DNA of 64,000 nucleotides. Origin: Candidatus Dormiibacterota bacterium (GTDB lineage: Bacteria; Chloroflexota; Dormibacteria; Aeolococcales; Aeolococcaceae). How positions within the stretch are numbered: position 1 is the first letter of the stretch; each line of letters opens with the position of its first letter. Both the position numbers and the translations under genes were made by a program. The notes beneath the pieces are model-generated. The model was given only the letters and a program-made list of their open reading frames with translations. It was not told the DNA's origin and did not search any database. Positions 59,122 to 62,643 of this stretch are shown one piece after another. The DNA lies in the NCBI GenBank assembly GCA_963709585.1, contig CAVPXI010000007.1:32001-96000 (forward strand). The letters are read 5' to 3'.

Positions 59122-59856
59122 ACCTCGAGCTGCGCGGCGTCGAAGGACTCCCCGAGATCCGCCCCGGCGACGACCTTGCGGCGCTCATCGTCCAGAATTC
59201 CGGGCCAATCCGTGGCGGCGATGTCGTCGTCGTGGCCCAGAAGGTGGTCTCCAAAGCGGAAGGCCGGATTCGCAGCCTCGCGGATGTCACGCCATCGGAG
59301 CGCGCGATCGCACTCGCGCGTAAGCTCGACGCGGATCCCCGCATGGTCCAGGTGATCCTCGACGAGACCACCAGTGTGGTGCGCGACGACCGCGTGCTGA
59401 TCGTCGAGACCCACCAGGGATTCGTCTGCGCCAACGCGGGCGTCGACCGGTCGAACGTCGACGGGGAGGACGACGTCTCCCTGCTTCCCGTCGATTGCGA
59501 CGCCAGCGCGCGTGCGCTTCGTGATCGGATCCACGCGCTGGCAGGCGTGCACGCCGGGGTGATCGTCAGCGACACCTTCGGGCGCGCGTGGCGGATGGGG
59601 CTTGTCAACGTGGCGCTCGGCGTCGCGGGGATACCGGCGATGATCGACTACCGCGGCCGGCCGGACGACTTCGGGATGCCGTTGCAGGCGACGCTGGTGG
59701 CGATCGCCGACGAGCTGGCGGCCGCCGCCGAGCTGCTGATGGGCAAGAACTCGACGCGTTCCCGCGGTCATCGTGCACGGACTCGATGAGCTCGACGCGG
59801 CGCCGGGCACCGGTCAGGAGTTGGTGCGCCCAACTGAGCTGGACCTCTTCCGGTGA
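59118..59856 (+). CDS. cofE: Coenzyme F420-0:L-glutamate ligase (apparent frameshift near 59749)
   Basis: QKVVSKAEGR, ANAGVDRSN and DTFGRAWR; C-terminus VPAVIVHG..DLFR lies in the shifted frame. Confidence 0.88.
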
Positions 59857-60779
59857 GGGTGGCGCTGCTCTCGGGAGGCACAGGGGGCGCGCGGCTCGCA
59901 ACCGGCCTGGCGGCGGTGCTCTCACCCGACGAACTGTCCATCGTGGCCAACACCGCCGACGACGACGAGTTCTGGGGTCTGCTCGTGAGCCCTGACGTCG
60001 ACGCGATCCTCTACCGGCTCGCCGGCATCTTCAACGAAGCGACCGGATTTGGCGTGCGCGACGACACGTTTCACGCGCAGGCGATGCTCGGGAACCTTGG
60101 CGAGCAGACGTGGTTCCAACTCGGAGACCGGGATATCGGCATGCACCTGCTCCGGGCCACGCTGCTGCGTGGTGGGCAGCGTCTGGCAGAGGCGGTGGCG
60201 CATCTGGCTCGGAGCTTCGGCATCAGGGTGCGGGTGATCCCGATGAGCGACGACCCAGTGCGCACCCGGATCCTCACCGATTCCGGCGAGCTGAGCATGC
60301 AGGAGTGGTTCGTGGGACAGCGGTGCCGGCCGGCGGTACGCGGGATGCGCCTCGCGGGGATCGAATCGGCGCGCCCCGCGCCGGAAGCCGTCGACGCTGT
60401 CGCCAACGCCGAGGTCGTGATCATCGGACCGTCGAATCCACTCCTGAGCGTCGATCCCATCCTCGCCGTCCTCGGCAAGGAGCTCCACCGGGAGCGCGTT
60501 GCCGTGGTCTCCCCGGTGGTCGGCGGCCGGTCGCTGAAAGGACCGACCGTGGACATGCTCCGGCAGATGGGCGAGGAGGCGAGCGCCCTGGGTGTGGCCC
60601 GCCGCTACGCCGGCATCGCAGCCACCATGGTCATCGACCGCGATGACGGGGCATTGGCCGAGCCGATCCGGGCGTTGGGAATGCGCCCGCTGGTCGAGGA
60701 CACGGTGATGGACGGCGCGCAGGGCGAGCGGCGTCTGGCGGCGTCGCTGCTCCGCGCCCTAGACATCCCACGGGGATAA
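59853..60779 (+). CDS. cofD: 2-phospho-L-lactate transferase (last codons supplied by the IS110 end)
   Basis: SGGTGGA, NTADD, SPDVD, LGDRD, PMSDD and GPSNP. Confidence 0.92.
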   Translation: MRVALLSGGTGGARLATGLAAVLSPDELSIVANTADDDEFWGLLVSPDVDAILYRLAGIFNEATGFGVRDDTFHAQAMLGNLGEQTWFQLGDRDIGMHLLRATLLRGGQRLAEAVAHLARSFGIRVRVIPMSDDPVRTRILTDSGELSMQEWFVGQRCRPAVRGMRLAGIESARPAPEAVDAVANAEVVIIGPSNPLLSVDPILAVLGKELHRERVAVVSPVVGGRSLKGPTVDMLRQMGEEASALGVARRYAGIAATMVIDRDDGALAEPIRALGMRPLVEDTVMDGAQGERRLAASLLRALDIPRG

Positions 60780-60783
60780 GTCG

Positions 60784-61998
60784 TCAAGCAGCAGCCTGAC
60801 GGATGGGTGGCCAGGCCACGCGTTCGGAGTAGCAGCAGCGATGTTCGAGACAGCCGTGGAGGATGCCGACGAGACGGTTGGCGAGGGCACGCAGCGCCTG
60901 ATGGTGGGTGTGGCCGCGGGCACGATGAGCCGCGTAATAGGCACGTGCGCCCGCTGAATGCGTCAGGGTGCAGAAGGCCCACAGGTAGAGCGCATCGGCG
61001 AGACGGCGGTTGCGCGTCACACGCGCCAGGACCACCGACCGAGTGCCTGAGGCACGAGTGATCGGAGCGCTGCCGGCATAGCAGCGTCGCGCTCTGGCAT
61101 TCTCATAGCGGGTCCGGTCGTCACCGAACTCCGCCAAGACCCGGGCGCCGAGGATCACACCAAGTCCGGGCAGACTGCGCAGGATCTCGGCGTCCGGGTG
61201 ATCTTCAAAAGCCTCGGCAAGCTCGGCCTCGAGGGTGGCGATCTGCGCATTGAACTCGCTGATCACGCGCACCATGGCCAGCACCGAGCTGCCATACGCC
61301 CTGGCGAGCAGCGGCGGCGGCGCCAGTTGCGGCGCACGCAGTGCGCGTTGCAAGGCCGCAGCGCGGGGGGCGATCCCGCGACGGCGCCCGCTACGCGCCA
61401 GCACCACCCGGAGCTGGTTGAAAGTCAGCCGCCGTCCTTGCTCGGGCGTGGGTGCTCGGCTGAGCAACGCCAGTGCGTCCCGACCGGCCAACTCCGTGCC
61501 CAGCGCGTCCAGTGCAGCGGGATAGAACTCCCGCAGCGCGCTGCGCAGCTGATTGGCATGCCGGACGCGCGCCCACACCAACGTCTGATGGGTGCGGGCG
61601 AGCACTTTCAGACTCTCCGCGAGCTCGCTGTCGCCCGCCATCGGGCGATGGTTCTGGCGATCGGTGCGGACCAACTCGGCCAACACCTTGGCGTCGCCCG
61701 GATCCGACTTCGCCCGCGACACGGTATGGCGATCGCGGTAGCGACTCACCGCGAACGGATTCAGGGCATACACCTGATACCCGGTGGCCACCAACCCTTG
61801 CACCAGCAGACCGCGGTCGGTTTCGATGCCAACCACCACGGTCTCGGGTTTCGAGGTGTGCGCCCCGACCAGCTCATGGATGCGTGCCAGGCCTTCGATC
61901 CCATCGGGGACGCGCGCCTTGTCGAGACGGGCTCCTGCCTCGTCAAGGAGACACACGTCGTGGTGCGCCTCCGCCCAATCGATGCCGAGGTAGACCAT
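60784..61998 (-). CDS. IS110 DEDD recombinase/transposase
   Basis: GIDWA, GIET and KSDPGDA (DEDD); SLPGLG; YAGSAPITRASG (catalytic Ser region); RBS AGGAGG before ATG 61998. Confidence 0.95.
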   Translation of the reverse strand: MVYLGIDWAEAHHDVCLLDEAGARLDKARVPDGIEGLARIHELVGAHTSKPETVVVGIETDRGLLVQGLVATGYQVYALNPFAVSRYRDRHTVSRAKSDPGDAKVLAELVRTDRQNHRPMAGDSELAESLKVLARTHQTLVWARVRHANQLRSALREFYPAALDALGTELAGRDALALLSRAPTPEQGRRLTFNQLRVVLARSGRRRGIAPRAAALQRALRAPQLAPPPLLARAYGSSVLAMVRVISEFNAQIATLEAELAEAFEDHPDAEILRSLPGLGVILGARVLAEFGDDRTRYENARARRCYAGSAPITRASGTRSVVLARVTRNRRLADALYLWAFCTLTHSAGARAYYAAHRARGHTHHQALRALANRLVGILHGCLEHRCCYSERVAWPPIRQAAA

Positions 61999-62039
61999 GT
62001 GGCGCTCCTCCTGTGTGAACGCGACAACGAGCCGGAGGA

Positions 62040-62212
62040 GCATCGCGGCGCCCTAATGGATCAGTGCTCGGGGCACGACATCCCACCGGCCGTCTTGTCT
62101 CCTCGCCAACCGTCGGGGCCACGGTCTAGGCCTGGAGCTCAGCGCTCTGAGTTCGAAGAGTGGTCACCCGCCGGCGGCTCGGGAGCAGCTTGCTCCTCAG
62201 CCGAGCTGCTCG
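62040..62212 (-). ncRNA. Putative IS110 bridge RNA (5' stem-loop, target-binding loop, donor-binding loop)
   Basis: Guide segments match the element junction (GTGGGATGTC and CCATTAG) and the insertion target (..ACTC and CCTAGA); each pair brackets a 4-bp hairpin; RNA ends approximate. Confidence 0.8.
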
Positions 62213-62232
62213 CCACCCATTAGAGTCAACCG

Positions 62233-62643
62233 ATGGCCCATGAGCTTGCACTCGAGTACCTCCGCGCGAACCCGCGAGGCGTGCTCGCGACCTATCGACG
62301 CGACGGCCAGGCACAGCTCTCGCCGGTGCTCGCCGGCGTCGACGCGGAGGCTCGCGTGGTGATCAGCACGCGTGAGGGGGCGATGAAGGCGCTCAACCTT
62401 CGCCGCAACCCGCGCGCCGGTCTCTGCGTGCTCAGCGAACGCTTCTTCGGCGAGTGGCATGCCCTCGAGGGCGACGCCGAGGTTCTCAGCCTTCCCGATG
62501 CGCTGGAACCGCTCGTCGACTACTACCGTCGGGTCAGTGGAGAACACCCCGACTGGCAGGACTATCGCGATGCCATGGCACGCGAGCGCCGTGTGCTGCT
62601 GCGCATCACCGTCGATCGCAGCGGGCCGACGACGCAGGGATAA
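62233..62643 (+). CDS. PPOX-class F420-dependent oxidoreductase
   Basis: GVLATYRRDG.AQLSPV, KALNLRRNPR and HPDW.DYRDAM..ERRV. Confidence 0.88.
   Translation: MAHELALEYLRANPRGVLATYRRDGQAQLSPVLAGVDAEARVVISTREGAMKALNLRRNPRAGLCVLSERFFGEWHALEGDAEVLSLPDALEPLVDYYRRVSGEHPDWQDYRDAMARERRVLLRITVDRSGPTTQG

Follow-up and report, generated by a model that had tools for sequence, protein, structure and literature searches.

The window analysed here, a stretch of 64,000 nucleotides (nt) from contig CAVPXI010000007.1 of a Candidatus Dormiibacterota assembly (GCA_963709585.1), carries at positions 60761..62223, on the minus strand, an intact IS110-group insertion sequence whose left non-coding end matches, in the two loops of a predicted bridge RNA, both the element's own ends and the site into which it has been inserted. 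That the choice of target is guided by this RNA is the reading that we favour, with a probability of about 0.9. Anatomy, copy number, target motif, covariation of guides with flanks and of stem partners with each other, catalytic residues and the junction promoter motif were computed here; transcription, RNA-protein binding, the circular intermediate and the chemistry are taken over from IS621 of Escherichia coli, a bridge recombinase acting with a 177-nt bridge RNA (PMC11208160, PMC11208158; here and below, statements on published systems refer to the parts of the cited sources that were accessible). All coordinates are window positions, and the element is read on the minus strand.

Predicted target and donor guides in the left end

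The left non-coding end (62223-61999; 225 nt) contains two stem-loops, each with an internal loop in which the putative guides are found. The first, the predicted target-binding stem-loop (62105..62178), consists of an outer stem (62178-62160 with 62122-62105), the internal loop, and an inner hairpin, GAGC/gctga/GCTC (62147-62135); the left target guide (62149..62158), which reads CTTCGAACTC in this copy and CTTCGACTC in its two sister copies, has the sense of the top strand of the left target followed by the C of the core, and the right target guide GGCCTAG (62126..62132) is the reverse complement of CT-AGGCC, that is, of the core and positions +1 to +5 of the right target. The initial annotation of the window had placed the parts of this loop correctly (TTCGAACTC at 62157-62149, the inner hairpin, CCTAGA at 62130-62125), and the closing stem that it proposed, CCAC (62163-62160) with GTGG (62122-62119), is present; its reading of the final A of CCTAGA as guide did not survive the comparison described below.

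The assignment is comparative. A search for related loci returned 80 of them (L004-L083; recombinase identity 53-94%), the closest in Candidatus Dormibacterota assemblies and many others in Acidimicrobiia; 78 of these were aligned with the three copies of the genome itself (n=81), 60 loci having both junctions, with 46 distinct target loops. Covariation of guides with flanks, which the initial annotation had proposed as a check, is found on both sides of the loop: its 5' side agrees with the left flank at 5.07 of 8 positions (permutation mean 2.49), and the reverse complement of its 3' side agrees with the right flank at 4.78 of 7 (permutation mean 2.63), neither value being reached in any of 5000 permutations among the 46 loops. 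The signal is limited to positions -6..-1 and +1..+5, with background beyond; family-wide, the match of the left guide at flank positions -1 to -4 is 0.93, 0.87, 0.89, and 0.70 (null 0.5 to 0.3), and that of the right guide at +1 to +5 is 1.0, 0.96, 0.80, 0.85, and 0.70. In the element itself, the last five letters of the left guide, GACTC, correspond to GACT plus the core C at all three insertion sites, and CTAGG matches all three right flanks (AGGGC, AGGTC, and AGGCT). The closest relatives, L004-L007, whose recombinases are 83-94% identical, differ in their target loops, and each loop agrees broadly with the flanks of its own element, at least one mismatch aside. In IS621, the 5' guide pairs with the bottom strand and the 3' guide with the top strand (PMC11208160), and the same strand rule holds in this element and across the family; the first loop thus behaves, as far as an alignment of orthologues can tell, as a target-binding loop covarying with the flanks.

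The A which follows CTAG in the right guide agrees with the flank in only 15% of the 46 distinct target loops; it is a handshake position for the donor and not a target guide, and its match to the T of the target is coincidental. The match to TCTAGG proposed in the initial annotation was therefore one letter too long.

The second stem-loop (62035..62104), which would bind the donor, has an outer stem formed by the arms GAGGAG (62104-62099) and CGGC (62092-62089) on one side and GCCG (62049-62046) and CTCCTC (62040-62035) on the other, the donor guides in the internal loop, and an inner hairpin, GTGC/cccga/GCAC (62076-62064). The left donor guide, GTGGGATGTC (62086-62077), has the same sense and letters as the right end at 60771-60762, and the right donor guide, CCATTAG (62059-62053), is the reverse complement of the start of the left end, CTAATGG; all of these parts lie where the initial annotation had put them. 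The donor loop is nearly invariant across loci, its 5' side following the right end and its 3' side the reverse complement of the left end, and where variants occur they tend to be matched: in four elements the change of CTAATGG to CTAATAG goes together with that of CCATTAG to CTATTAG, and in most loci, with exceptions, guide and right end carry the same one of two variants, GGGATGTC or GGGGTGTC.

The concept of handshake guides (PMC11208158) applies to both loops. In this element, the two letters that follow the right target guide, AC (62124..62125), complement donor positions 6-7 (the GT before the CT of the right end), and the two that follow the right donor guide, GG (62051..62052), can pair with target positions 6-7 (CT). 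Across the 46 loops the letter directly following CCATTAG is paired with target position 7 in 44 cases (38 of them Watson-Crick), the null expectation being 31.9 (26.0) and no permutation out of 5000 reaching the observed value; between the conserved A that comes next to CTAG and the conserved T of donor position 7, a position which is itself invariant, pairing holds in 46/46. The second positions are weaker in the pairing test, the second letter of the target loop pairing with donor position 6 in 36/46 with wobble included. On these alignments, the two letters after each 3' guide appear to behave as handshake guides.

Structure, boundaries and insertion sites

Folding of the left end, also suggested in the initial annotation, is uninformative for the single sequence, which folds no better than its shuffles (z = -0.75); the structure rests on comparative evidence, and here an alignment of 66 distinct left ends, analysed by RNAalifold and by counting pairs, does support the stems. 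Paired cells amount to 97.1%, against 90.1% in shuffles and 32-46% in slid controls, and 17 of the 32 pairs have changes on both sides (155 cells), a figure reached by none of 500 shuffles; in particular, 11 of the 17 pairs of the target outer stem and 4/4 pairs of the target inner hairpin are changed on both sides, and the donor inner hairpin hardly varies. Because their alignment blocks are gappy, the donor outer stem and the 5' hairpin were missed by RNAalifold; both are supported by tests that do not depend on the alignment. Indeed, the arms of the donor outer stem pair better with their own partners than with those swapped between loci (-19.0 vs -16.3 kcal/mol; 0/5000), and the 5' hairpin has a mean energy of -15.5 kcal/mol compared with -8.8 for shuffled sequences, with at least 7 pairs in 60 of 61 distinct sequences. 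This hairpin (62183..62211), formed in the window by GAGCAGCT (62211-62204) and AGCTGCTC (62190-62183), precedes both loops as had been proposed, and the left end thus shows the covarying arrangement of a 5' stem-loop followed by two stem-loops with internal loops.

A candidate long-range helix between CGAGC (62176-62180) and GCTCG (62028-62032) would enclose both loops, and could clamp them together; all six of its six pairs are changed on both sides (0/500 shuffles), and it conflicts with pairs proposed by RNAalifold (68-69/162-163 and 73-75/157-159) which show little covariation (1 pair; reached by 169 of 500 shuffles). The sole Rfam match above threshold, RF02464 (Ms_AS-4, an actinobacterial small RNA; 54.8 bits, threshold 50), lies on the opposite strand at 61093-61174 (+), antisense to the region of the recombinase gene that is most conserved; this match probably reflects the conserved coding sequence of IS110 elements and no separate RNA gene.

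The boundaries of the element are defined by its sister copies and by related loci. Two further copies are present in the genome (L002 and L003), and in both the identity to the window copy breaks off at the same two ends, past a 9-bp target motif common to all three sites; the window copy measures 1463 base pairs (bp) and both sisters 1462 bp, with the CT core counted at each end. The left end begins with CTAATGG (62223-62217), and the right non-coding end (60761..60783; 23 nt) finishes with the motif GTGGGATGTCT (60771-60761), exactly where the initial annotation had located them. In the 80 related loci, homology begins at CTAAT in nearly all cases, as judged by alignment of the upstream regions, and the right ends finish with GGGRTRTCT about 23 nt past the stop codon. 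The left core dinucleotide (62222..62223) is read as GACT-CT-AATGG and the right one (60761..60762) as GGGATGT-CT-AGG in 3/3 copies, and a single CTAG stands in the empty sites of relatives. A long left end, a short right end, no terminal inverted repeats and CT at both junctions are the features of the IS110 group, and window 60761-62223 is accordingly an intact insertion sequence of this group.

The three copies lie between the flanks cggttGACT-CT..CT-AGGgcg, ctccaGACT-CT..CT-AGGtca and gaagtGACT-CT..CT-AGGctc, which are unrelated beyond GACT-CT-AGG, so that this motif can be taken as the target; the other insertion sites thus agree with the guides, a point on which the initial annotation had staked its proposal. 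No intact unoccupied GACTCTAGG occurs in the assembled genome, and therefore every perfect 9-mer is filled; among near-sites, six of the form ACTCTAGG and two of the form GACTCTAG are unoccupied. The empty target reconstructed in the initial annotation is seen as such: of 11 same-genus loci examined, 6 have the uninterrupted site GCC-CTAG-AGTC, and in run X16 a diverged contig spans it, with 60763 joined to 62252. Two contigs of run X1 stop and start at 60763 and 62221, where filled and empty alleles would diverge, which gives a weak hint that both alleles coexist in the X1 soil sample; no listed X1 contig spans the empty site. The bridge-recombinase system is complete and multi-copy, and apparently recently mobile.

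The element sits in a cofD-like gene (59853-60779, +), whose 3' end it disrupts, directly ahead of a PNPOx-like gene (62233-62643, +). It replaces the final residues of the cofD-like protein, whose reading frame stops here within the element's right end; in relatives, this frame continues through CTAGAGTC and reaches a TGA overlapping the ATG of the gene that follows. The homologous cofD/PNPOx junction is occupied in a same-genus relative, G076, by another, related element (L006/L087/L121), whose recombinase is 88% identical, whose target loop differs and which is oppositely oriented; its insertion used the CT adjoining the AG of the window copy (window 60755-60765 and 62220-62235), so that the same CTAG has served for both. 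CTAG, at which nearly all elements of the clade insert, is rare in these genomes, and this may raise the odds of such shared use.

When the left end was used to search 117 genomes belonging to the same family, most matches were loci already found, and none was an additional copy with precisely this target loop; L089, from a genome flagged as unpublished (G060), supports none of the claims made here. Matches restricted to the initial 40-54 nt of the left end, covering the end and the 5' hairpin, were obtained at 88-96% in several same-genus genomes (G094:C183:6456-6509, G114:C15:71331-71384, G099:C8:228737-228778, G080:C167:1975-2015, and G102:C4:308400-308442); these could be remnants, or other elements sharing the hairpin. 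The genome also harbours a second IS110-family element in three copies and one partial DEDD domain, all outside the window (G000 C4:323803-324267, C7:267329-267793, C8:73574-74038, and C13:130955-131260), with seven matches to PF01548 overall.

Recombinase, circle junction and known relatives

The recombinase gene (60784..61998) encodes 404 amino acids (aa) with a DEDD RuvC-like domain and a Tnp (Ser) domain, matched by PF01548 at residues 4-160 (E=1e-37) and by PF02371 at residues 270-355 (E=2.9e-15); the NCBIfam equivalog NF033542, 'IS110 family RNA-guided transposase', scores 202.8 bits at a cut-off of 140. A phmmer search of the single protein against solved structures gave no match at E<=0.001, IS621 included; a profile built from 20 homologues finds the structures of the ISCro4 transposase (E=4.3e-16) and of the IS621 transposase (E=2.1e-15). 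Residues D7, E59, D99, D102, S317, and G318 are invariant in the 20 homologues, and D7, D99, D102, S317, and G318 align to D11, D102, D105, S241, and G242 of IS621, whose catalytic roles are taken from PMC11208158. About 75 residues (roughly 155-228) are without counterpart in the solved chains of ISCro4 and IS621. The gene is preceded by a Shine-Dalgarno sequence, GGAGGAG (62005..62011), 6 nt before the ATG at 61998; GGAG or GAGG stands there in 62 of 66 related left ends.

A scan of the integrated element for sigma-70 promoters and terminators returned no site. Joining of the right end to the left end creates TTGACG, an 18-nt spacer and TCTAAT across the core; the -35 hexamer (60782..60787) overlaps the stop codon, and the -10 hexamer exists only across the circle junction, where 60763-60761 is joined to 62221-62219. 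In 49 distinct contexts of joined right and left ends the -35 sequence is TTGACA in 37, TTGACN in 11, and another in 1, and the spacer is 17-18 nt in 48, in a test that concerns the motif alone. A promoter reconstituted across the circle junction is known from IS621 (PMC11208160).

By analogy with IS621, the element would excise as a circle, and the promoter TTGACG-N18-TCTAAT, formed across the CT core by the joined right and left ends, would drive synthesis of a bridge RNA of some 180 nt from the left end (roughly 62211 to 62030), with the recombinase mRNA following further along. Such a transcript would start near the 5' hairpin, and the right donor guide would therefore be left free of the start of the left end. 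The RNA would then fold into the 5' hairpin and the two stem-loops, each with its internal loop; GTGGGATGTC and CCATTAG of the donor loop would match the right and left ends of the element in a two-strand manner, the AC and GG handshake positions would pair with the partner DNA after strand exchange, and the DEDD/Ser recombinase, acting as a tetramer, would carry out strand exchange at the CT core, by which the circle would enter GACT-CT-AGG.

The same transcript may also hold a switch, though this is a rather doubtful proposal. The arm CTCCTCC (62040-62034) is complementary both to its stem partner GAGGAG (62104-62099) and to the Shine-Dalgarno sequence GGAGGAG (62011-62005), and over 66 left ends the duplex between arm and Shine-Dalgarno averages -15.2 kcal/mol, compared with -11.9 for shuffled arms; if bridge RNA and recombinase mRNA were one transcript, CTCCTCC might either complete the donor loop or block translation. 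Were this so, circle formation would be followed by a coupling in cis between the folding of a functional bridge RNA and recombinase translation, a layer of control not met in the accessible parts of the IS621 papers (PMC11208160, PMC11208158).

As in IS621, a DEDD RuvC-like domain is combined with a Tnp domain carrying the catalytic Ser-Gly; the left end is long, the right end short and the core CT; the predicted RNA, about 180 nt long, lies upstream of the DEDD/Ser recombinase and presents in order a 5' hairpin, a target loop, and a donor loop, with 5' guides in top-strand sense, 3' guides as reverse complements and handshake positions; and a promoter is formed at the circle junction. The arrangement recognised in the initial annotation as that of IS110 bridge recombinases is thus indeed the one described for IS621 (PMC11208160). 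Unlike IS621, the recombinase has 404 aa instead of 326, the host is an uncultured soil bacterium of 67% GC, the natural target match is shorter (4+2+3-4 nt at three sites), and RNA, binding, and activity are predicted from the sequence of the element. More distant members of the same family are the ISCro4 transposase (PDB 9t56), the best profile match in the Protein Data Bank, and IS622 (bioRxiv 10.1101/2025.05.14.653916), which, according to the accessible parts of their descriptions, have been characterised or engineered, unlike the present element. The relatives L004-L083 have the same left-end architecture, donor loop, ends and junction promoter, each with its own target loop and insertion-site sequence; a limited literature search found no individual description of them. 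RNA guidance reportedly extends to the IS1111 group, for which it is said to have been described in the seekRNA paper; a DEDD/Ser recombinase and RNA-guided target choice would be common to that group and to the element studied here. IS1111 elements have their RNA in a long right end and carry 7-17-bp subterminal inverted repeats (PMC11208160). Membership of the IS1111 group was considered for the element and rejected, its right end having only 23 nt and all the structured, covarying RNA lying in the left end.

Bridge RNAs have been predicted in 85.7% of catalogued IS110 elements, with thousands of orthologues (Durrant et al., PMC11208160). The recombinase/RNA pair, called new in the initial annotation, is new as an orthologue; it is not a new kind of system, the protein family being already named by NF033542.

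Competing explanations and meaning

A number of points weigh against an RNA-guided choice of target, or at least against its details. The natural matches between guides and target are short (4 nt, the 2 nt of the core, and 3-4 nt), and the target motif is defined by three insertion sites only; 21 of the 81 aligned loci were dropped for lack of one junction (contig ends or atypical ends), and the related loci are not independent, kinship inflating the significance of the permutations. E59 lies two columns away from E60 of IS621 in the alignment to the hidden Markov model, so that their equivalence is an assumption. No read of the circle junction was seen and no run contig joined it; contigs, and not reads, were compared, and none of the runs listed for this stretch is recorded as RNA, X16-X20 being only guessed to be RNA and containing small shares, and the X16 contigs covering parts of the element without strand, ends, or level. 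No Rfam family matches the left end (61999-62223, element strand), even at E<=10; the Rfam library gave no bridge-RNA match, membership of the RNA family rests on the alignment made here, and the missing match says nothing against the RNA. Finally, the extra A in the left target guide of the window copy, if real, would shift the register of its own RNA.

This extra A (62153/62152), which turns TTCGACTC, as read in both sisters, into TTCGAACTC, is the sole indel between the window copy and its sisters, and it leads to an explanation that we regard as unlikely, namely that the bridge RNA of the window copy is impaired by a true insertion of 1 nt, the copy depending on the RNA of its sisters in trans or having been retargeted. 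The additional base is stated by the assembly itself and falls inside a guide, and L004, whose guide has GAACC where its flank reads GACC, suggests that such a bulged A might be accommodated or have arisen more than once. The extra base is missing, however, from contigs of runs X1 and X3, and the X1 contig (record 7) extends 22 nt into the flank of this very insertion site, in a strain about 6% diverged; moreover, the other position at which the window copy departs from its sisters (61422, T in place of C) also falls inside a GACTC word, and X1 and X5 contigs carry the sister state there, which fits consensus errors at one motif. GACTC, the reading suspected in the initial annotation, is thus probably the true guide and the extra A an error; in either case, GACTC is the ancestral guide. 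The accompanying claim that GAACTC is mis-called elsewhere in the window found no support: GAACTC stands genome-wide at 0.98 of expectation, that is, without enrichment, and a crude frameshift test found no excess at GAACTC (4 of 39 sites vs 21 of 186 at four control motifs). GACTC itself is depleted genome-wide (0.75 of expectation, the 8th lowest of 512 five-letter words), and both differences of the window copy from its sisters (62149-62154 and 61420-61426) lie in GACTC words; the genome may be avoiding a restriction-modification motif, the consensus may contain modification-linked errors, or chance may be at work.

Very improbable, in our judgement, is the explanation that the left end is a 5' untranslated leader with a terminal sequence recognised by the protein, the guides being binding sites of the recombinase or elements of a promoter or attenuator, and the protein itself choosing the target. 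It would accommodate a donor loop as invariant as a protein site should be, as well as the pairing of CTCCTCC with the Shine-Dalgarno sequence, which suggests a leader function, and the RNA has been inferred, not observed. A base-by-base covariation with host flanks, on opposite strands for the two sides, is nevertheless unexpected for a protein site, as is the fact that proteins 83-94% identical are accompanied by different target loops and correspondingly different sites; in addition, the stems stay paired through 155 double changes, and IS621 provides an experimental precedent for guidance by RNA (PMC11208160). Chance similarity in GC-rich sequence is more improbable still; target matches of only 5 and 5-7 nt and a single-sequence fold no better than its shuffles might have pointed that way, but it is refuted, within the limits set by relatedness among the loci, by the comparative data, since the permutations (0/5000) and shuffles (0/500) never reach the observed values and all three perfect 9-mers are occupied, none being free. 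An RNA-guided choice of target by a bridge recombinase remains, in our view, the best account of the element.

The element leaves the understanding of the mechanism of bridge recombinases unchanged; it adds a system from an uncultured, high-GC soil lineage, with its nearest relatives in assemblies of Candidatus Dormibacterota and Acidimicrobiia. For the annotation of such elements, it shows that both loops and the target can be called correctly from sequence alone, and for those who build tools, it is a further orthologue, one whose recombinase is longer and whose RNA scaffold is GC-rich. As for the family, the clade gives a clear natural picture of retargeting, in which identical donor loops are accompanied by different target loops and by correspondingly different insertion sites.

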